A DNA stretch of 15,366 bases from Escherichia coli. Lineage in GTDB: Bacteria; Pseudomonadota; Gammaproteobacteria; Enterobacterales; Enterobacteriaceae. The notes below the pieces were generated by a model. The model was not told where the DNA came from. It did not search any database and worked only from the letters and a program-made list of their open reading frames with translations. Location: assembly GCF_003334315.1 (NCBI RefSeq), contig NZ_QOWR01000075.1, one strand, 5' to 3'. Shown here piece after piece: positions 1 through 14,913 of the stretch. The translations under genes and the position numbers were made by a program. The first letter of the stretch is position 1. Each line of letters opens with the position of its first letter.

Positions 1-105
1 ATTATATCGAATGTGATTACAATCGGTGGCGGCGGCACAGTTGGTGTGGCGGCCTCAGTCCGGAACAATTTGAAAACAAGAACCTCGCTTAGGCCTGTGT
101 CCATA

Positions 106-483
106 TTACGTGGGTAGGATCAGATCAGGAACAGCTTTAACAGTAGCTTCTTGTTGTGTCTTGGCTTCTTGTCTAGCTTCTTCTTGTGGAATATCTACCA
201 CTTGATAGACATTAGAACTTCCTGGTCGTGCATCTTTTATAATTAACCCCATTTCGAGCAATTTCTTAACCCTTTCCTCTGCTGCTCTTGGTGTTATGCC
301 AAAAACATCGCCTATCTTAGCGTAAGAGGGAAATGCACGATCAAACCCTTTCAGATAGCAGTAAAGATTTTTAGCACTATCTGTAAATTTATGCCCGTTT
401 ACTTGGCTTATTTTTAGAATCCACATAGGAACTTTTACAAATTGTTCTTCATTAATCATTAAAAATCTCCTTGATGTAATCAC
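106..483 (-). CDS. HTH_36-like winged-helix DNA-binding protein, 125 aa (putative replication-initiator-like or regulatory protein of the element)
   Basis: ORF MITSRRFLMINEEQFVKVPMWILK...; the central segment SAKNLYCYLKGFDRAFPSYAKIGDVFGITPRAAEERVKKLLEMGLI has the pattern I associate with the HTH_36 family found in phage/plasmid Rep-like proteins. Strong RBS: the minus strand reads AAGGAGA about 7 nt before the ATG. Last gene of a tightly packed three-gene operon. Confidence 0.55.
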   Translation of the reverse strand: MITSRRFLMINEEQFVKVPMWILKISQVNGHKFTDSAKNLYCYLKGFDRAFPSYAKIGDVFGITPRAAEERVKKLLEMGLIIKDARPGSSNVYQVVDIPQEEARQEAKTQQEATVKAVPDLILPT

Positions 484-512
484 GCTCTATGGCGCTACTA
501 TGGTGATAAAAA

Positions 513-683
513 TCACTTGCTTTTATTTGAGAGTGTTTCAGCCTCTCTTTTCAACATATCAAGAATGTAATCTGTGACAGTGATACGTCTACTTCTGGCT
601 TCTTTAAATAACACCTGAAATACTTCATCAGGAATATGAAAGCAAGTGCGTGGTTGTCTTTTCTTTTCTGTAGTTTCGCTCAT
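513..683 (-). CDS. Small ribbon-helix-helix-like (CopG/Arc-type) protein, 56 aa; absent from the supplied ORF track (below length cutoff)
   Basis: Hand translation of the minus strand: MSETTEKKRQPRTCFHIPDEVFQVLFKEARSRRITVTDYILDMLKREAETLSNKSK, stop TGA (complement at 513-515). The pattern basic N-terminus, beta-strand (TCFHIPDEV), helix (FQVLFKEARSRR), helix (ITVTDYILDMLK) is RHH-like. Strong RBS AAGGAG 6 nt upstream; 19-nt gap to the upstream gene and 29-nt gap to the downstream gene. Confidence 0.35.
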   Translation of the reverse strand: MSETTEKKRQPRTCFHIPDEVFQVLFKEARSRRITVTDYILDMLKREAETLSNKSK

Positions 684-702
684 AGTTTTCTCCTTCTATT
701 CT

Positions 703-891
703 TTACTCTGTTTCAGATTCTTTTTCATTTTTTCTTAATTCATCAATAATCTTGAGTGCTTCATTGAAGCAAGCTGCTCGCTCTGGATAACCTCGACTCC
801 TTGCCATATTACGATTCATTACTATTTGGTGGCGTGTAAGCTCACCTTTTTTAAATGCCGCGACAACGTGTTCCGATGTGAACCATTTCAT
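703..891 (-). CDS. Hypothetical small protein, 62 aa; first gene of the three-gene operon
   Basis: ORF MKWFTSEHVVAAFKKGELTRHQIVMNRNMARSRGYPERAACFNEALKIIDELRKNEKESETE with a strong RBS (minus strand TAAGGAGTTTTTT then ATG). I do not recognise a family. Confidence 0.4.
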   Translation of the reverse strand: MKWFTSEHVVAAFKKGELTRHQIVMNRNMARSRGYPERAACFNEALKIIDELRKNEKESETE

Positions 892-1122
892 AAAAAACTC
901 CTTATTCAGTTAAAAGAAAAACACCTTGCAAGCCTGACGGCTTCAAAGTGCATTGATTTTGATTATTTAGAGAAGAATGTTTTTCTGTCCCTCTAATACC
1001 TATTATTACATATAAAGAAACATTTGTCAATACCTTTTCACAAAAAATCTGATCTTTTTCATGTACTTACATTTTTTCTTAGCAATTCGTGCTCTTCTGT
1101 GTAGTGCTATTCTTCCTTATTG

Positions 1123-1145
1123 TCTAAAACGCTCTAAAACGCGTT
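1123..1145. repeat. Tandem 10-bp direct repeat tctaaaacgc x2 running into the palindrome AACGCGTT
   Basis: Seen directly: tctaaaacgc at 1123-1132 and 1133-1142, followed by a degenerate third unit (gttctaacga). Lies in the non-coding region upstream of the minus-strand operon. Confidence 0.4.
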
Positions 1146-1461
1146 CTAACGAGGTTTTGATAAAAGCAATACATTCCCTTATGTAATGGCTGTTTAGCTC
1201 GCCAGAGGCTTATTTAAGGGGCTTATTTTGTATTTGTTAGGTATATGAAAAGGTGATGGTAGATATAAGATAGAGAGTCACTTTATAAAACGCTCTGTAA
1301 AGCCCTGTAGTGAGTTTATATATGTAGGCAATGCGTTTCCATTCCCTACCCTGCTTAATGCTGTTAGAGAAGCATTTAGACCCCTTATTTTTAATTACCT
1401 AAAGTATCCTCTATACATTCCTGTTATGAAACACCTCTGAATCCTTCATAAAACACATTAT

Positions 1462-1517
1462 GACGCAAAGAACACTTTTCTAAGGTGATTCCCTTCCTGA
1501 ATGCTGTTTCTTGCGTC
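1462..1517. repeat. Imperfect inverted repeat, 13-nt arms (gacgcaaagaaca ... tgtttcttgcgtc), 30-nt spacer
   Basis: Seen directly; 11 of 13 positions are complementary. Possible operator or RNA hairpin. Confidence 0.4.
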
Positions 1518-1560
1518 AAAGAGCTACACAGAGCTTATAAAGCTATTATTAATAATAAAG

Positions 1561-1620
1561 TAGACAAAGTAAGTAAGATAAGTAAGTAAGATAACTAAGA
1601 TAGATAAGATTAATAAGATC
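1561..1620. repeat. Degenerate AT-rich short tandem repeat (aagtaag / ataagat units)
   Basis: Seen directly: aagtaagataagtaagtaagataactaagatagataagattaataagatc. Confidence 0.6.
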
Positions 1621-1630
1621 AGAATTCTCT

Positions 1631-1660
1631 TTCGGTGTCGCCTCTGGCTTTTCCACCGAA
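1631..1660. other. Hairpin-forming inverted repeat ttcggtg-N16-caccgaa
   Basis: Seen directly: 7-bp perfect arms with a T-rich loop (tcgcctctggcttttc), located just before the first 42-bp direct repeat. Confidence 0.35.
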
Positions 1661-1663
1661 AAC

Positions 1664-1828
1664 AATTACACAACTACAGAGAATAACGAGAGTTATTAAA
1701 TGTAGAAAGTGGAATTGTATTGAGGCTTAGTGAAATTACACGAGGAAAGCAGAGTGTAATTGAGCTTTAGCCGCTCTCTCTTCGAGTAATTACACAACTA
1801 CAGAGAATAACAGAGTTATTAAATGTAG
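1664..1828. repeat. Pair of 41/42-bp direct repeats (aattacacaactacagagaataac(g)agagttattaaatgtag) about 124 bp apart
   Basis: Seen directly: copy 1 at 1664-1705, copy 2 at 1788-1828, differing by a single g indel. Each contains the short palindrome aataac...gttatt and is followed by similar sequence (gaaagtggaatt / gagggtaatt). Confidence 0.7.
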
Positions 1829-1917
1829 GAGGGTAATTAAGAGTTAGAGAGAGTTAACACATAAGCAATCAGTATGATTGGTTAGGTGATTACTCTTCTG
1901 CGCACAGCGCAATAGTA

Positions 1918-1960
1918 TTTCTTCGTGGGCGTTACCGCCAACGATAGTTACACGAAGAAA
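1918..1960. other. Strong stem-loop: 10-bp perfect inverted repeat tttcttcgtg / cacgaagaaa enclosing a nested ggcg-ttac-cgcc hairpin, within a locally GC-richer segment (about 1860-2075); candidate structured RNA or protein-binding site
   Basis: Seen directly. The 75-codon minus-strand ORF over this segment has no obvious RBS or protein-like composition, so I favour a structural element over a CDS. Confidence 0.4.
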
Positions 1961-2128
1961 GTAACGCTTTGCTTTCGGTGTGAGCGGAACGGGCCAGCCA
2001 CGAAGCCCAAAGGTAGCGGAGTAAGGCTGCTTGCCAGAGAGTGAAGCTAACGCCGGAAGGCAAAAGATCATATAAATAAATATATAATATTATAATTTAA
2101 TAAGTAATTTAATAAATGATCTAATAGG

Positions 2129-2262
2129 TAACAGAATTCTGTGGGGGTGTCTAACAGTTTTCTGTGGGGGTGTCTAACAGAATTCTGTTAGGGTGGGGTA
2201 ACAGAATTTTGTTAGGGTAAAAATCTCTTTAAAAGTTAAGATTAACAGAATTCTGTGGGGGG
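2129..2262. repeat. Repeat family A: palindrome (t)AACAGAATTCTGT(T) followed by G-runs (gtggggg); direct repeat ctgtgggggtgtctaacag x2
   Basis: Seen directly: copies starting near 2129, 2176, 2199 (degenerate, aattttgtt) and 2243, with a fifth at 2538. ACAGAATTCTGT is a perfect 12-bp palindrome, a likely dimeric DNA-binding-protein site. Confidence 0.7.
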
Positions 2263-2325
2263 TAGCTCACAGTGACCTACCCCCTAGTTCACTATGACCT
2301 ACCCCCCTAGGTCACAGTGACCTAT
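2263..2325. repeat. Iteron cluster 1 (family B): three roughly 21-bp units tag(c/t)tcac(a/t)(g/a)tgacctacccc; the third is the perfect palindrome AGGTCACAGTGACCT
   Basis: Seen directly: 2263-2284, 2285-2307 and 2307-2325; the palindrome is at 2309-2323. Confidence 0.7.
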
Positions 2326-2349
2326 ATAGTATAAAGAATATTATTTATA

Positions 2350-2377
2350 TTATTTAATTATAGTATTTAATTATAGT
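2350..2377. repeat. AT-rich 13-bp tandem repeat (atttaattatagt x2) in a roughly 50-bp A+T tract; candidate DNA-unwinding element
   Basis: Seen directly, lying between iteron families B and C. Iterons next to an AT-rich tract is the classical origin layout. Confidence 0.45.
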
Positions 2378-2385
2378 ATTGGTGG

Positions 2386-2483
2386 AACTCATTTCCTAGG
2401 TAGGTAGGAACTAATTTCCTAAGTAGGTAGGAAACCACTTCCTAGGTTACTTCCTAAATAGATCGGAAATCATTTCCTAGGTG
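2386..2483. repeat. Repeat family C: (a/c)tttcctagg(taggtagga) units at roughly 22-bp spacing (4-5 copies); contains the palindrome CCTAGG
   Basis: Seen directly: tttcctagg at 2392, tttcctaag at 2414, cttcctagg at 2438, cttcctaaa at 2451, tttcctagg at 2473. Confidence 0.6.
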
Positions 2484-2498
2484 TTATTTATACTTATC

Positions 2499-2535
2499 GG
2501 GTATCAGTTTTGATAGGGGTATCAGACTTGATAGG
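2499..2535. repeat. Repeat family D: gggtatcag(tt/ac)ttgatag x2 in tandem, 19-bp period
   Basis: Seen directly at 2499-2516 and 2517/2518-2535. Confidence 0.6.
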
Positions 2536-2556
2536 GGTAACAGAATTCTGTGGGGG

Positions 2557-2618
2557 TAGTTCACTATGACCTACCCCTAGTTCACTGTGAGCTACCCCTA
2601 GTTCACTGTGAGCTACCG
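2557..2618. repeat. Iteron cluster 2 (family B): three head-to-tail 21-bp units tagttcac(t)(a/g)tga(c/g)ctacc(cc)
   Basis: Seen directly: 2557-2577, 2578-2598 and 2599-2618, with exact 21-bp periodicity (two helical turns), as expected for Rep-binding iterons. Confidence 0.75.
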
Positions 2619-2712
2619 TTACATCCAATCATCTGTCGATGTAACATATCGTTACTACCAACTTTCTTACAAAGAGCATTTCAGATAGCTGAATGTAACC
2701 TCTCGTTACATC
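2617..2712. repeat. Palindrome-rich block: gttacatc-N12-gatgtaac, gtaac-atatc-gttac, and cgttacatcc repeated (2617 and 2703)
   Basis: Seen directly. Confidence 0.5.
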
Positions 2713-2729
2713 CATTTGTCACATAGCAC

Positions 2730-3210
2730 TCTGTGTAATGCCTTTCTATGTGTGTGCCATAATCCCCCTATATTCCCTGTGTAAATCATAGAATAATGCT
2801 CTCTATTCCCTGTGTAATTCCCTACTAAAAATCAATGAAAAAGTAGCTTAAAGTTGCAATTCTTACTTTCTTCACTTTTACATCACTTTCGCAAAGCCTT
2901 GTGTAATGCGGCTTACAGAGCACCATCAGAAATTGTTGGCTAAAAATTATTCTGCTTGTTTCTGAACGAGTTTTCTCGTTTGTGCAAATTTTAAAATTTA
3001 TTTTGTTTTTACAGCCTTATTTCGTGTAATGCGTGGCATAGCAAGCCCTTTTCTTGTGTTGTCAAGACATTTGGCAACGTTCAAACATCTGTTTAGAAAT
3101 GCCAAATTGTTGATCTAACAAATAAACCTGTATAAACAGAACACCATTTAATCTATTCCCCTGTGTATCCATTAGGCATACCAAATGAATACAGCTAAAT
3201 CGTGTAATAT
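2730..3210. repeat. Dispersed motif (c)tgtgtaat(g) recurring about 7 times, including the direct repeat tattccctgtgtaa x2 (2770-2818)
   Basis: Seen directly near 2733, 2779, 2811, 2901, 3026, 3161 (variant tgtgtatcc) and 3203. The region is non-coding and leads up to the recombinase gene. Confidence 0.45.
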
Positions 3211-3262
3211 TCCGTACCCATAAGGCTTGAAACAGACCAAATGAATACGGTATACTCATTTG
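3169..3262. promoter_or_regulatory. Putative res/hix-like recombinase binding region: duplicated motif cat(t/a)aggc..accaaatgaatac(a/g)g plus the palindrome caaatga-N11-tcatttg
   Basis: Seen directly: copy 1 at 3169-3194, copy 2 at 3217-3250, palindrome at 3238-3262 with the palindromic core gtatac. The location immediately 5' of a resolvase-family gene is where res sites sit in Tn3-family and plasmid resolution systems. Confidence 0.4.
3227..3256 (+). promoter_or_regulatory. Putative sigma70 promoter of the recombinase gene (-35 TTGAAA, 18-bp spacer, -10 TATACT)
   Basis: -35 at 3227-3232, -10 at 3251-3256, about 45 nt upstream of the ATG at 3302. The -10 lies inside the palindrome, which would suggest autoregulation. 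Sequence-pattern inference only. Confidence 0.35.
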
Positions 3263-3301
3263 CATTTAAGTAGTGCCAAATCGACACATTAAGAGGATTT
3301 T

Positions 3302-3841
3302 ATGAGCAATATCGGTTATAAGCGTGTGAGCACTGTAGATCAGAACACTGATCGCCAGCTTGCAGGAGTAACTCTCGATAAAGTCTTTGAAGATAAGCTG
3401 TCTGGTAAAGACACTAACCGCCCAGGCTTACAAGCGTGTTTAGCCTATCTGAGAGAAGGCGACACCTTACACGTGCACTCTCTCGACCGTTTAGGACGTA
3501 ACACCTTAGACATCCTTGCTTTAGTTGAACAACTTAATAATCGAGGTGTAATTGTTCGATTTCACAAAGAAGGAATCATTGCAGACATTACAAGCGCGAT
3601 GGGAAAGATGATGCTTACGATGTTGTCGGCAGTTGCAACGTGTGAACGTGAACTGATGTTAGAACGTAAACGAGAAGCGCAAGCCGTCAATCCTACAAAA
3701 CGTGGTAATGGAAAAGCAGTGGATCGAGAAGGTATAAAGAAAGCCCTTTCTGATGGCCTGTCAGTGCGTAAAACCGCCGAGAGCTTTAATGTTGCTCCTT
3801 CAACGGTGCAACGTATCAAGAAGGAAGAAGAGGAGGCGTAA
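3302..3841 (+). CDS. Small serine recombinase (resolvase/invertase family), 179 aa
   Basis: N-terminal GYKRVSTVDQ is the catalytic-serine motif of serine recombinases. Conserved blocks FEDKLSG, RPGL, LDRLGR and SAVATCERELMLER resemble the Tn3 TnpR, Gin and Hin layout. A C-terminal HTH is present (LSVRKTAESFNVAPSTVQRIKK). RBS AAGAGGA lies 5 nt upstream. Not identical to the Pin or Gin sequences I recall. Confidence 0.85.
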   Translation: MSNIGYKRVSTVDQNTDRQLAGVTLDKVFEDKLSGKDTNRPGLQACLAYLREGDTLHVHSLDRLGRNTLDILALVEQLNNRGVIVRFHKEGIIADITSAMGKMMLTMLSAVATCERELMLERKREAQAVNPTKRGNGKAVDREGIKKALSDGLSVRKTAESFNVAPSTVQRIKKEEEEA

Positions 3842-3850
3842 TGCCTCCTT
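3829..3850 (+). terminator. Possible hairpin at the recombinase stop (ggaggcg-taa-tgcctcc)
   Basis: 6-bp GC stem spanning the stop codon, followed by ttgatattt. Weak T-tract, so low confidence. Confidence 0.25.
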
Positions 3851-4077
3851 GATATTTGAGAATTGTCGCTGCGTGGACCTGACGGCGCTGATCTTCTCGT
3901 TAAGCGATGATCACGTATGCGCCGATTTCAGAGAAAAAGACAGTAACTGAACTCACTATGAAGGCTAAACGTATCTTTACACTTGATGAAAACGTTCAAA
4001 AAACAACCTAACCCCAAAATTCAACAAATTGCAACACATTGTTTTTAAAAGAAAATTAAATCTACATCAAATATTGG

Positions 4078-4106
4078 TTGACGTAGATTGAGGTGAATAG
4101 TAGACT
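4078..4106 (+). promoter_or_regulatory. Putative promoter for the small hydrophobic ORF (-35 TTGACG, 17-bp spacer, -10 TAGACT)
   Basis: Pattern match only; would give a leader of about 70 nt before the ATG at 4183. Confidence 0.25.
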
Positions 4107-4182
4107 ATTAGGGTAAATTACCACCCTTGTAACATCATTTAATGCATGTTCTAATCTTCCTATCGTAAAACCGGAGGAAGTT

Positions 4183-4341
4183 ATGCATTTACTTTCAAAA
4201 CATCTTCACACTATTCACTTTCTCGTTATTGATGTATTCGTTGTGGCTATTAGTTACCGCATTTGCATCGCTTCCAGTGAAGAGATGGACGCTGTTGCAA
4301 TTATTGCTCAAGCAATGGCGATATTAACTAAACGACTTTAA
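4183..4341 (+). CDS. Small hydrophobic protein, 52 aa (candidate small membrane protein or toxin-like peptide); absent from the ORF track
   Basis: Hand translation: MHLLSKHLHTIHFLVIDVFVVAISYRICIASSEEMDAVAIIAQAMAILTKRL, stop TAA at 4339-4341. Strong RBS GGAGGAAG 5-6 nt upstream. A roughly 20-residue hydrophobic stretch is consistent with one transmembrane helix. Confidence 0.35.
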   Translation: MHLLSKHLHTIHFLVIDVFVVAISYRICIASSEEMDAVAIIAQAMAILTKRL

Positions 4342-4354
4342 TAATTTCACTATC

Positions 4355-4398
4355 AGGCGCATAAACACATCTTTGATCGCTGGATGTGTTATGCGCCT
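4355..4398. terminator. Long near-perfect inverted repeat (aggcgcataaacacatc - N11 - gatgtgttatgcgcct) between the two convergent small ORFs; candidate bidirectional terminator or operator
   Basis: Seen directly: arms at 4355-4371 and 4383-4398, 16 of 17 positions paired with one bulged A. The position between convergent ORFs fits a terminator, though flanking T-tracts are weak. Confidence 0.45.
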
Positions 4399-4407
4399 AC
4401 TGGTGAT

Positions 4408-4560
4408 TCAATCCTTAAGCCATTTCAACTCACTAAGGAGTTTTCTTTCTTCGTTCTCTCGTTGCTTTCGCTCTAGCCAGGCTTTTCCCTCTGGCGTAGA
4501 CAGGAACTTACGAGCGTGAATCTTGCGGTTATTACGTTTTATAGCTGCAATGTTTTTCAT
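4408..4560 (-). CDS. Small basic protein, 50 aa, hypothetical; absent from the ORF track
   Basis: Hand translation of the minus strand: MKNIAAIKRNNRKIHARKFLSTPEGKAWLERKQRENEERKLLSELKWLKD, stop TGA (complement at 4408-4410). A possible RBS (AGAGG) lies upstream. I do not recognise a family. Confidence 0.3.
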   Translation of the reverse strand: MKNIAAIKRNNRKIHARKFLSTPEGKAWLERKQRENEERKLLSELKWLKD

Positions 4561-5166
4561 CGTGTTGCCTCTGTATTCATATGAAAATTAACAAGTTACA
4601 TACTACACAGGGAGACTACGCATAAAACACAATACAAGTAAAGATACATTTTCAAGACAATAGGAGCCATAAAGCGCCTTTGATGGTTATACCAAAAAAT
4701 AAGCGCCGTAGGCGTATCCACTAAAAAGGGCTTTTTCACAAAAGCTATGAAGTCTTAGCAGTTCTTCTCTTATCAGGCACCCGTTGTACTCCGGTGGACG
4801 AAACCGTGCTAGAGCTTGATTCTTTCCCGATCAAGTTAGGTTTTGAAGAGGTGGGCTTTAATCCACTATTGCACTTAAAACTCTTCCCATCATTTAGCCT
4901 GTTTATCCTCTGCAACGTCTCACGACGTGTAGCATCATTGGACACCGCGCCAGGTGTGGAACATCTTGCTAAGAGTTTTGGTAGAAGGTTTAGAGACGGT
5001 GGCACGTCTTCCAGCTTCAAAGGAACTTGTTACGAGGTTGAGCCTGGGAACTACTCGCCCATACGTGTTACACTACCAAAGCCCATAACAACGTATAGGC
5101 GTTTGTAAGTGATAACAGAAGATACAATTTCTTAGAGAAGTTAAGCTAAGTTATTGATTTTCTTGA

Positions 5167-5242
5167 TGGTGCCGATAATAGGAGTCGAACCTACGACCTT
5201 CGCATTACGAATGCGCTGCTCTACCAACTGAGCTATATCGGC
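5167..5242 (-). tRNA. thrW: tRNA-Thr (anticodon CGU), thrW-like
   Basis: The minus strand reads GCCGATATAGCTCAGTTGGTAGAGCAGCGCATTCGTAATGCGAAGGTCGTAGGTTCGACTCCTATTATCGGCACCA: cloverleaf features, anticodon loop TTCGTAA, encoded CCA. It sits downstream of proA as in E. coli. Confidence 0.95.
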
Positions 5243-11620: not shown

Positions 11621-13078
11621 GTGTCTGAACTGTCTCAATTATCTCCACAGCCGCTGTGGGATATTTTTGCCAAAATCTGTTCTATTCCTCACCCGTCCTA
11701 TCATGAAGAGCAACTCGCTGAATACATTGTTGGTTGGGCAAAAGAGAAAGGTTTCCATGTCGAACGCGATCAGGTAGGTAATATCCTGATTCGTAAACCT
11801 GCCACCGCAGGTATGGAAAATCGTAAACCGGTCGTCTTGCAGGCCCACCTCGATATGGTGCCGCAGAAAAATAACGACACCGTGCATGACTTCACGAAAG
11901 ATCCTATCCAGCCTTATATTGATGGCGAATGGGTTAAAGCGCGCGGCACCACGCTGGGTGCAGATAACGGCATTGGTATGGCGTCTGCGCTGGCGGTTCT
12001 GGCTGACGAAAACGTGGTTCACGGCCCGCTGGAAGTGCTGCTGACCATGACCGAAGAAGCCGGTATGGACGGTGCGTTCGGCTTACAGAGCAACTGGTTG
12101 CAGGCTGATATTCTGATTAACACCGACTCCGAAGAAGAAGGTGAAATCTACATGGGTTGCGCGGGGGGTATCGACTTCACCTCCAACCTGCATTTGGATC
12201 GTGAAGCGGTTCCAGCTGGCTTTGAAACCTTCAAGTTAACCTTAAAAGGTCTAAAAGGCGGTCACTCCGGCGGTGAAATCCACGTTGGCCTGGGTAATGC
12301 CAACAAACTGCTGGTGCGCTTCCTGGCGGGTCATGCGGAAGAGCTGGACCTGCGCCTTATCGATTTCAACGGTGGCACACTGCGTAACGCCATCCCGCGT
12401 GAAGCCTTTGCGACCATTGCTGTCGCAGCTGATAAAGTCGACGCCCTGAAATCTCTGGTGAATACCTATCAGGACATCCTGAAAAACGAGCTGGCAGAGA
12501 AAGAGAAGAATCTGGCCTTGTTGCTGGACTCTGTAGCGAACGATAAAGCTGCTCTGATTGCGAAATCTCGCGATACCTTTATTCGTCTGCTGAACGCCAC
12601 CCCGAACGGTGTGATCCGCAATTCCGACGTGGCAAAAGGTGTGGTCGAAACCTCCCTGAACGTCGGTGTGGTGACCATGACTGACAATAACGTAGAAATT
12701 CACTGCCTGATCCGTTCACTGATCGACAGCGGTAAAGACTACGTGGTGAGCATGCTGGATTCGCTGGGTAAACTGGCTGGCGCGAAAACCGAAGCGAAAG
12801 GCGCATATCCTGGCTGGCAGCCGGACGCTAATTCTCCGGTGATGCATCTGGTACGTGAAACCTATCAGCGCCTGTTCAACAAGACGCCGAACATCCAGAT
12901 TATCCACGCGGGCCTGGAATGTGGTCTGTTTAAAAAACCGTATCCGGAAATGGACATGGTTTCTATCGGGCCAACTATCACCGGTCCACACTCTCCGGAT
13001 GAGCAAGTTCACATCAAAAGCGTAGGTCATTACTGGACACTGCTGACTGAACTGCTGAAAGAAATTCCGGCGAAGTAA
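11621..13078 (+). CDS. pepD: Cytosol non-specific dipeptidase (aminoacyl-histidine dipeptidase) PepD, 485 aa, GTG start
   Basis: ORF MSELSQLSPQPLWDIFAKICSIPHPSYHEE... recognised as PepD (M20 family). Start codon GTG at 11621, preceded by AAGGAGA. Divergent from gpt across a roughly 260-bp intergenic region. Confidence 0.95.
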   Translation: MSELSQLSPQPLWDIFAKICSIPHPSYHEEQLAEYIVGWAKEKGFHVERDQVGNILIRKPATAGMENRKPVVLQAHLDMVPQKNNDTVHDFTKDPIQPYIDGEWVKARGTTLGADNGIGMASALAVLADENVVHGPLEVLLTMTEEAGMDGAFGLQSNWLQADILINTDSEEEGEIYMGCAGGIDFTSNLHLDREAVPAGFETFKLTLKGLKGGHSGGEIHVGLGNANKLLVRFLAGHAEELDLRLIDFNGGTLRNAIPREAFATIAVAADKVDALKSLVNTYQDILKNELAEKEKNLALLLDSVANDKAALIAKSRDTFIRLLNATPNGVIRNSDVAKGVVETSLNVGVVTMTDNNVEIHCLIRSLIDSGKDYVVSMLDSLGKLAGAKTEAKGAYPGWQPDANSPVMHLVRETYQRLFNKTPNIQIIHAGLECGLFKKPYPEMDMVSIGPTITGPHSPDEQVHIKSVGHYWTLLTELLKEIPAK

Positions 13079-13090
13079 TTATTTGATTTG

Positions 13091-13122
13091 CTGCCGGATG
13101 GCGTTTAATCGCCTTCCGGCAG
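13091..13122. terminator. Hairpin between convergent pepD and prfH (ctgccggatggcg-tttaat-cgccttccggcag)
   Basis: Seen directly: 13-bp stem with one mismatch. Flanking T-tracts are weak, so the terminator call is tentative. Confidence 0.4.
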
Positions 13123-13134
13123 TTTCATCCTTCA

Positions 13135-13692
13135 TTATCCTTCGATAAAAGCCATCCCTGTAAATGTCCGTCGCGGGTTGCCACGTTCAATCTGGTGATG
13201 GAACATTCGCCGCTGCGATTTCAGCGCCGCGCTATTTTCCTGTTGCTGCTGCTCCAGCTTCCAGGCAATCAGCAATCGCGCCAGCCGTTTGTTAGCATGC
13301 TGGCTGCGCTCTGACTGAACCTTCACGCTAATACCGGATGCCAGATGCGTGGCGCGTACCGCCGAGTCGGTTTTATTGACATGTTGACCGCCCGGCCCCG
13401 ACGAACGCAGCGTCTCATAACGGATTGCATCCGATTGTTCCTTCTCATCAGCGGTAAAACGCCCAATGCCCAGAAACCAGTTTTTGCGCCCATGATGAGG
13501 CCGATACGGACTCGGACAAATCCACTGAATAGTGCCACACCAGCTTTCGCTTAATGCCCATGCGTTATCGCCATCCAGAGAAACCAGCGCCGAACGCAGC
13601 GTGTCAGAGTAGCGGCCCGTTTCTGTTTCCAGCACCGTTACAGCGACGTCTTGTCGGGTAAAAACGACCAACAGAGAAGAACGCTGCGCCAA
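13135..13692 (-). pseudogene. prfH: Peptide chain release factor homolog PrfH, 5'-truncated or fused remnant
   Basis: The ORF contains the release-factor GGQ motif ([20 protein letters not shown]). Its 5' end overlaps, in another frame, the end of an RtcB-like fragment, consistent with the deletion-fused rtcB'-prfH' remnant known from E. coli K-12. Whether the product is functional cannot be told from sequence alone. Confidence 0.7.
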
Positions 13693-13870
13693 TCGGGTAG
13701 CCGCGTCCGGGGTGTAAATCTGGCATCCCCACTACGCGCTGCATGTTGGGTAAATTTGCCGTGGTGTGTAATTGTTGGATCGCTAAACTCTCGATCCACA
13801 GGTCATCAGATGCGATGGTAAATACCGCATCGGATAAGGGACGAATATATTTGCCCATGTACCATTCCAT
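13604..13870 (-). pseudogene. ykfJ: RtcB-like RNA ligase N-terminal fragment (ykfJ-like remnant)
   Basis: The 88-codon [67 protein letters not shown]... resembles the RtcB N-terminal region (MPD.H.G.G..IG), then runs into out-of-frame prfH sequence at about 13655-13660. Far shorter than an intact RtcB. Confidence 0.6.
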
Positions 13871-14050
13871 TTATACTCGTCATACTTCAAGTTGCATGTA
13901 CTGCGACTCGAATTATTTAGAGTATATAAATATAAAAATCAGGAAATGGCAGACGAATCCAGGGCAAGAAAAAAAGAATTAATCCTGGAAAGGTCTGCAA
14001 AGAGTCATTGATAAAGGATTTGTCATGATTTACCTCCTTGCAGTTTGTGG

Positions 14051-14090
14051 AATAAGAAAACGCGCACATACCAGGCGGGCGTTATTTTCA
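14051..14090 (-). terminator. Weak candidate terminator downstream of yafP
   Basis: Short hairpin aacgc-N15-gcgtt (14059-14083), followed on the minus strand by TTTTCTTATT. Low confidence. Confidence 0.25.
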
Positions 14091-14103
14091 TTGCAAGCTG
14101 GAT

Positions 14104-14556
14104 TTAATATTGCGGTTTATATCGCATATAAAAATTAGTAAACCACGTTCCCCGGCATTCAACGCGCTGCTGCTTAACTGTCTGAAAACCATAACGTTCA
14201 AAAAAGGGTTTTGCGGTTATGCTGGCGTCCACCGTAAGTTCGGATTCAGACTTAATCAAAGGTTTTAACAAAGCGCAGGCAACCCCGCGGCGGGTGTATT
14301 CAGGGTCAACAAATAACATATCGATATAACGTTCAACGCAGGTAATAAAACCAACCGGTTGTGCATTAATGACGGCAACCCGCACTTGTGATTTCGCGAG
14401 TTTCTCCTTCCAGCGAGATTCGTCAATCTGCGCCCAGGCGGCAATTTGTTGTGGTGAATAATGCTGACTGGAGATCATCGTAACCGCTCTAATGAAAATA
14501 GCGCATAGTTGCTGAAAATCGCCAGGCTGATAGTCTCTTATTTGTATGTTATTCAT
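14104..14556 (-). CDS. yafP: GNAT-family N-acetyltransferase, 150 aa (YafP-like)
   Basis: ORF MNNIQIRDYQPGDFQQLCAIFIRAV... with an acetyl-CoA-binding-like segment (RRGVACALLKPL); 10 nt downstream of yafO, as in the dinB-yafN-yafO-yafP operon. Confidence 0.8.
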   Translation of the reverse strand: MNNIQIRDYQPGDFQQLCAIFIRAVTMISSQHYSPQQIAAWAQIDESRWKEKLAKSQVRVAVINAQPVGFITCVERYIDMLFVDPEYTRRGVACALLKPLIKSESELTVDASITAKPFFERYGFQTVKQQRVECRGTWFTNFYMRYKPQY

Positions 14557-14565
14557 AATATAAAT

Positions 14566-14913
14566 TCAAAAACGCATGCGAAACGCTTCTGCCATTTTCC
14601 CAATTTTATGCATTTGGTTGTTATCTCGAGCCTGTTTATGAGGTTCAGGTTTCAGAATGGCAATGAGCAACCATGCTTGCTCATCAAACGCACCCTGACA
14701 ATATACCAAATGCGCTTCGTCATTCGTTCTGCTGAATTGGCGCAACTGTGGCGGAAATGGATTATTCACATTTGCCAGATGAATATGAGCAACTCGCTCA
14801 AATTTGATTAATGGCCAGGTAAACGAGTCGTCGTAGAGTGCATCGCGACCAAATATATCTGGCAAAACACCGTCACGCTTATAGGAAATAAAATCCGCCG
14901 TTAACGCATCAAG
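14566..14913 (-). pseudogene. yafO: YafO-family toxin gene (type II toxin of YafN-YafO) interrupted by IS1; about 16 N-terminal codons lie beyond the insertion
   Basis: The reading frame continues upstream of the track ORF (...LDALTADFISYKRDGVLPDIFGRDALYDD...) right up to coordinate 14913, where the IS1 terminal repeat begins at 14914. There is no in-frame ATG in the retained part; the track ORF starts at TTG. Confidence 0.8.

Follow-up and report, generated by a model that had tools for sequence, protein, structure and literature searches.

The rtcB2-prfH locus between pepD and yafP of Escherichia coli: anatomy, breakpoints and population frequency of a 1,027-bp deletion allele

The pepD–yafP interval of the E. 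coli DNA analysed here (15,366 nucleotides of contig NZ_QOWR01000075.1, assembly GCF_003334315.1, referred to below as the window) almost certainly contains an inactive remnant of the ribosome rescue-and-repair operon rtcB2-prfH, in the same allelic form as the K-12 pseudogenes ykfJ and prfH. An earlier note on this DNA had described a decayed rtcB-prfH module at 13135–13870, formed by a deletion that removed most of rtcB together with the start of prfH and fused the two pieces out of frame. The ORF listing agrees with this, in that two overlapping ORFs on the minus strand together span exactly that interval (Table 1), and comparison with eight intact loci reduces the event to one deletion of 1,027 bp.

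With gene identities assigned from ORF sizes and from the RefSeq annotation of matching genomes, the order of genes in the window is thrW, proA, proB, phoE, crl, frsA, gpt, pepD, yafP and yafO. Between pepD and yafP the rtcB2 fragment lies on the same strand as the prfH remnant and directly upstream of it, and the two-gene order of the RtcB2 family is thereby retained. In strain VG1046-3E9, whose allele is identical to that of the window, RefSeq labels one piece 'prfH, incomplete, missing N-terminus' and the other 'RtcB family protein, incomplete, missing C-terminus', and the alleles of K-12 and O157:H7 have the identical annotation, both pieces being partial pseudogenes.

Table 1. Positions of the remnant, its neighbours and other features in the window
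Feature	Position	Strand	Basis or remark
Small serine recombinase in the low-GC island	3302–3841		weak XisF/invertase-type matches
tRNA-Thr(CGT), thrW	5167–5242	-	
pepD	11621–13078	+	
185-codon ORF, prfH frame	13135–13692	-	first start-type codon TTG
prfH remnant, nt 92–615 of the 615-nt gene	13135–13658	-	alignment to intact prfH (L003 1586–2200)
GGQ motif, codons GGC GGT CAA, PrfH residues 120–122	13384–13392	-	inside the Pfam RF-1 match
88-codon ORF	13604–13870	-	ATG start
Deletion junction, one hybrid repeat copy TGTCGGGTA	13652–13660		base-by-base comparison
rtcB2 remnant (ykfJ in K-12), first 200 nt of the 1,140-nt gene	13659–13858	-	native ATG 13858 kept
Short-form ERIC/IRU intergenic repeat, directly upstream of the rtcB2 start	13872–13926		inverted repeat of 25-nt arms
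yafP	14104–14556	-	
yafO remnant ORF	14566–14865	-	YafO profile positions 35–132 of 132

Intact loci, such as those of STEC005, ATCC 25922, LF82, HS and O121:H19, carry an rtcB of 1,140 nt and a prfH of 615 nt, the stop of the former overlapping the start of the latter (prfH at 1586–2200 and rtcB at 2197–3336 in the intact locus L003). When aligned base by base the window lacks L003 2110–3136, and the deleted length is equal against all eight intact loci compared, which are those five and three others. The segment lost runs from about nt 201 of rtcB2 to the end of that gene and takes in nt 1–91 of prfH. Such an alignment, which the earlier note had proposed as a means of mapping the endpoints, places them at imperfect 9-bp direct repeats, TGTCGGGTA and TGCCGGGTA, of which one hybrid copy is left in the window; in four intact loci (L004, L008, L017 and L018) the repeats read TGTCGGG followed by TA on the prfH side and TGCCGGG followed by TA on the rtcB side. 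The crossover position falls within 13655–13660. Because 1,027 is 1 modulo 3, the rtcB2 and prfH remnants are joined out of frame: the RtcB frame continues for 20 codons into prfH DNA to a stop at 13604, and the PrfH frame reaches upstream into rtcB DNA as far as 13692. A single 1,027-bp deletion joined rtcB2 at about nt 200 to prfH at about nt 92, and it most likely arose by illegitimate recombination or replication slippage between the two imperfect repeats.

The 88-codon ORF is made up of 4 extra N-terminal codons, RtcB2 residues 1–68, 20 out-of-frame prfH codons and a TGA stop. It matches the RtcB2 model NF007153 over profile positions 1–69 of 379 with 106.6 bits (E 1.4e-30), short of the cut-off of 407 for a full-length RtcB2 (NF007153 / TIGR03073), and its match to the Pfam RtcB family is limited to the first 33 positions, whereas intact rtcB2 and prfH from the same chromosomal site give full profile coverage. 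The proposal that this ORF is an N-terminal fragment of RtcB therefore stands, although the length of about 72 residues given for it does not. Counting the microhomology codons, 68 residues are kept and the fragment ends at P68; the other four (MEWY) come from an in-frame upstream ATG at 13870 that is not conserved, being ACG in the intact STEC005 allele, and the conserved start is the ATG at 13858. In an alignment with P. horikoshii RtcB the counterparts of RtcB2 residues D74 and C77 are D95 and C98, and HGAGR is situated near residue 294. In RtcB enzymes aspartate, cysteine and histidine residues are the established metal ligands, and the histidine of HGAGR is the one that is guanylylated. 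All of these positions are beyond residue 68 and so belong to the deleted part, the fragment ending 6 residues before the first metal-binding motif, and as every catalytic residue is lost the RtcB2 piece cannot ligate RNA. Since the promoter region of rtcB2 is intact, as are its ATG and codons 1–68, the remnant could still give rise to a short RtcB' peptide. A sigma-70 promoter scan of 13000–14250 predicted no promoter, a negative to which no weight attaches.

In the 185-codon ORF the first 11–12 codons are out-of-frame rtcB2 DNA, and what follows is prfH from codon 32 to codon 204 with the stop at 13135–13137 and without the native start codon. The ORF matches the NCBIfam model for peptide chain release factor H (TIGR03072) with 277.2 bits (E 6e-83), above the cut-off of 166.65, but only over profile positions 31–200 of 200, and it contains the Pfam RF-1 domain (PF00472) with its GGQ motif. 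This is the PrfH-like ORF with GGQ and without a native N-terminus that had been described before, and it is not a full-length gene, as 31 of the 204 residues, the start codon and the ribosome-binding site are missing and the ORF upstream of it is indeed RtcB. The rRNA-recognition domain of PrfH consists of residues 2–98 and 180–204, as defined by cryo-EM on the damaged ribosome (structure 7sa4; PMC9304027), and residues 9–12 form one wall of the pocket for the cleaved A1493 3'-phosphate end of 16S rRNA (PMC9304027). With residues 1–31 lost the recognition domain of the remnant is incomplete, and Baranov et al. had argued that in the truncated product a central beta-strand of the domain would be missing (authors' response in PMC1586002).

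The signals for translation of prfH are affected as well. The native ATG and its GGAGGG Shine-Dalgarno sequence (anti-Shine-Dalgarno duplex of -9.8 kcal/mol) are inside the deleted segment, and the remnant is without a start codon of its own, with Shine-Dalgarno sequence, that overlaps the rtcB2 stop (translational coupling). The only start-type codons ahead of GGQ in the PrfH frame are TTG 13692, TTG 13671 and GTG 13635, whose duplexes range from -0.7 to -3.7 kcal/mol and none of which has a Shine-Dalgarno match. The prfH reading frame is nonetheless still open over 185 codons in the window, which counts against a dead remnant. The PrfH piece keeps the GGQ peptidyl-tRNA hydrolase domain while its start, its Shine-Dalgarno sequence, its coupling to rtcB2 and residues 1–31 are gone, and from these features we infer that it is probably not translated.

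The deletion allele is common. When 13050–14110 was searched by megablast against 5,426 complete E. coli genomes, 5,418 proved to carry the locus, which falls into several length classes, and the matching arrangement recurs at 96–100% identity in thousands of E. coli genomes, far beyond chance. A 100-nt junction probe was matched end to end in 2,688 genomes of the 5,426, including K-12 MG1655 and O157:H7, and the 1,027-bp segment that the window lacks was found in 2,675, an approximately 50:50 split. A single origin of the deletion is the best explanation for a junction that is identical throughout. Among 12 deletion alleles and 8 intact alleles that we sampled, secondary lesions are confined to the deletion alleles. 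A frameshifting 169-bp deletion with GCAT microhomology at its ends removes GGQ in five of the twelve (L005, L006, L011, L012 and L013; equivalent to window 13301–13469, and absent from the window itself), and a 12-bp deletion occurs in one. The 169-bp segment is held by 4,756 genomes and its flanks by 5,365, from which it follows that about 600 of the 5,426 genomes are without the segment, a figure that is the difference of two probe counts and thus an estimate only.

The spacer between rtcB2' and yafP is itself variable. The window and STEC005 have the short form of the ERIC element, two 25-nt arms with the central 72 bp missing; the element is full-length in K-12 (L002 2332–2458), O157:H7 and LF82, where each of the two ERIC PCR primers matches it with 1 mismatch; and ATCC 25922 is missing 127 bp at the ERIC site. 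The ERIC indel and the 1,027-bp deletion occur in all four combinations, a sign of recombination or of recurrent loss. The one identical junction is found in many different haplotypes, and over 513 bp the deletion alleles have 21 variants in common with intact alleles; together with the four combinations this shows an old, recombining polymorphism at intermediate frequency. It seems quite unlikely that the loss allele is held near 50% frequency in E. coli by selection and not by mere tolerance. Were it so, selection might, for example, act on the burden of an active RtcB2-PrfH module in settings free of colicin E3-type toxins, or on some activity left in the 84–88-residue RtcB' peptide, which could still be translated, or in the GGQ fragment.

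The variation within prfH provides further insight into constraint on the remnant. Codons 34–204 of prfH, aligned as the prfH part alone, were compared in the 12 deletion and 8 intact alleles, which were picked by identity band and not at random, and the numbers are therefore indicative only. Pairwise dN/dS between deletion-bearing alleles is low (0.03–0.16), which taken alone would point to purifying selection, and a functional remnant was considered on this account and rejected after private and shared variants were separated, as the synonymous excess comes from the shared variants. Those found only in deletion alleles comprise 8 nonsynonymous and 7 synonymous changes, compared with 2 and 19 for variants shared by deletion and intact alleles and 10 and 27 for those found only in intact alleles (Fisher p = 0.02 when private, deletion-only variants are compared with all others, and 0.007 when they are compared with the shared ones). 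Of the synonymous variants carried by deletion alleles, 19 of 26 are shared with intact alleles, and the low dN/dS of the deletion alleles arises because such variants are ancestral or were imported by recombination from intact alleles. The changes specific to the deletion class look relaxed, although in this small sample (12 deletion and 8 intact alleles) the private ratio of 8:7 is still below the 2.5–3:1 or so expected at strict neutrality.

Taken together, the alternatives of a functional shortened PrfH, a fusion protein made by +1 frameshifting, an origin of the long form by insertion and an assembly artefact appear very unlikely. The 185-codon ORF, or a 166-codon ORF from GTG 13635, might encode an N-terminally shortened release-factor-like protein that functions as a stand-alone peptidyl-tRNA hydrolase, which is how prfH was first annotated in K-12, and an open ORF with an intact GGQ, a score of 277 bits against a TIGR03072 cut-off of 167 and the low pairwise dN/dS among deletion alleles (0.03–0.16) would all fit such a protein. 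We consider it highly improbable, because ahead of GGQ there is no ATG and no Shine-Dalgarno match, the native start and Shine-Dalgarno sequence having been deleted, and because the missing residues 1–31 include both a central beta-strand (PMC1586002) and pocket residues 9–12. The private variants, moreover, are enriched in amino-acid changes, GGQ itself has been lost in about 600 genomes, and in BW25113 knocking out the truncated genes produces no phenotype under challenge with colicin E3 (PMC9223846).

Translation of both pieces as an RtcB(1–68)-PrfH fusion protein by a programmed +1 ribosomal frameshift, as in prfB, is suggested by the phase of the two frames, the PrfH frame being +1 relative to that of RtcB' (13870 - 13692 = 178, 1 modulo 3), and by the end of the RtcB' ORF, CUC UGA C, which superficially resembles the prfB site CUU UGA C. 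Re-pairing from CUC to UCU is poor, however, there is no Shine-Dalgarno-like stimulator 3 nt upstream, and an accidental deletion created the arrangement; shifting at the stop codon would also bypass PrfH residues 32 to about 60, and the product would still be without the RtcB catalytic residues and the PrfH N-terminus, such that we regard a frameshift fusion as exceedingly improbable. As the two forms of the locus are about equally frequent, one could also suppose that the short form is ancestral and that the long rtcB2-prfH form arose by insertion, or that the short form is an artefact of assembly. Almost no credence can be given to either, since the long form consists of two complete members of widely conserved bacterial families with full-length profile matches and solved structures while the short form carries only truncated, frame-broken pieces, so that profile coverage already refutes an insertion, and since the same junction in 2,688 independently finished genomes excludes an artefact. 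A remnant left by deletion from an intact operon is thus the reading we adopt, and the locus should be annotated as a pair of pseudogene fragments, rtcB2'/ykfJ and prfH', instead of a release-factor gene.

Several features of the surrounding DNA are recorded here in their own right. An IS1 element extends from 14914 to the end of the window and interrupts yafO, which encodes the toxin of the yafNO toxin-antitoxin pair, some 51 nt past the yafO start. Collinearity with E. coli VG1046-3E9 stops at 14913, and the yafO::IS1 junction was found in one piece in none of the 5,426 complete E. coli genomes. In the window, K-12 and VG1046-3E9 yafNO is situated between dinB and yafP; in four loci with an intact operon (L003, L004, L015 and L016) dinB overlaps yafP directly and yafN-yafO are absent. 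In three further loci with an intact operon (L017, L018 and L019; positions 1–314) a gene for a 'metal-dependent hydrolase' follows prfH on the same strand after about 60 bp, at the place where other sampled strains show pepD, and in these loci PrfH ends in FVAV or FIAV, compared with FIEG. This arrangement may represent a three-gene variant of the module.

At the other end of the window a low-GC island (34–45% GC, window 1–5160) adjoins thrW, and a scan of the whole window against Rfam found only this tRNA-Thr. The best complete-genome matches of the first 5.3 kb have about 94–95% identity over 86–87% of its length. Within the island a stretch of about 2 kb (approximately 1100–3300) contains no ORF of at least 90 amino acids, and the closest E. 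coli genome has no gene annotated there; the stretch includes short internal direct repeats at 1664–1705 and 1788–1828 (98% identity) and at 2243–2324 and 2538–2615 (85% identity).

The inactivated rtcB2-prfH allele is already known. Baranov et al. (2006; PMC1586002) reported that prfH of K-12 is N-terminally truncated, and that a deletion of about 1,000 nt has taken away the C-terminal portion of the gene upstream along with the RFH N-terminus in K-12 MG1655 and W3110 and in O157:H7 Sakai and EDL933, while CFT073, UTI89 and 042 have an intact locus (PMC1586002). To that record we add the exact breakpoints with their 9-bp repeats, the approximately 50:50 split among 5,426 genomes, the signal of relaxed constraint and the common second deletion that removes GGQ. 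The earlier note had said of the intact pair that it is thought to act in RNA repair and ribosome rescue, and this can now be put more firmly, as the function of the pair has been shown: PrfH frees the peptide only from ribosomes that have been cut in the decoding centre, between A1493 and G1494 of 16S rRNA (Tian et al. 2022; PMC9304027), and RtcB2 then religates the 30S subunit (PMC9304027), both proteins being presumably inactive in K-12 owing to the deletion (PMC9304027). Resistance of ATCC 25922 to colicin E3 depends on its intact operon (Maviza et al. 2022; PMC9223846), and BW25113, a K-12 derivative and not the strain of the window, is sensitive to colicin E3, with knockouts of the truncated genes changing nothing (PMC9223846). 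That the truncated K-12-type operon gives no protection from colicin E3 (PMC9223846) agrees with the view that the locus is vestigial here. Strains with the deletion allele should have no RtcB2-PrfH defence and should be sensitive to the ribotoxins that cut at A1493/G1494, colicin E3 and CdiA-CT(ECL), from which strains with an intact operon are protected. Beyond correct annotation the importance of the finding is small.

Set against the ykfJ/prfH pseudogenes of K-12 MG1655, W3110 and O157:H7, the remnant of the window occupies the same site (pepD / prfH' / rtcB2' / yafP) and has the same 1,027-bp deletion with a base-identical junction, 98–99% identity over the remnant and the same RefSeq pseudogene annotation. 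It differs from that of K-12 by one amino-acid difference, Q103K, by the short ERIC form upstream of rtcB2', which is 72 bp less than in K-12, and by the IS1 in the neighbouring yafO. The intact module of ATCC 25922 is orthologous and lies at the same site, with about 97% DNA identity in the parts that are kept, and the remnant shares with the PrfH of that strain GGQ, R83–N90 and R181–R189; by comparison the window is without RtcB2 residues 69–379, PrfH residues 1–31 and the overlapping stop and start with the Shine-Dalgarno sequence, and protection against colicin E3 and CdiA-CT is given by the intact ATCC 25922 module but not by the truncated operon. With RF1/RF2 and ArfB the remnant has in common the RF-1 (PF00472) GGQ domain and weaker matches to the prfB, prfA and ArfB models, but these fall far below the respective cut-offs and it is without domain 1, the stop-codon recognition motif and the ArfB-type C-terminal tail, and it is a fragment of PrfH, not a member of RF1/RF2 or ArfB.
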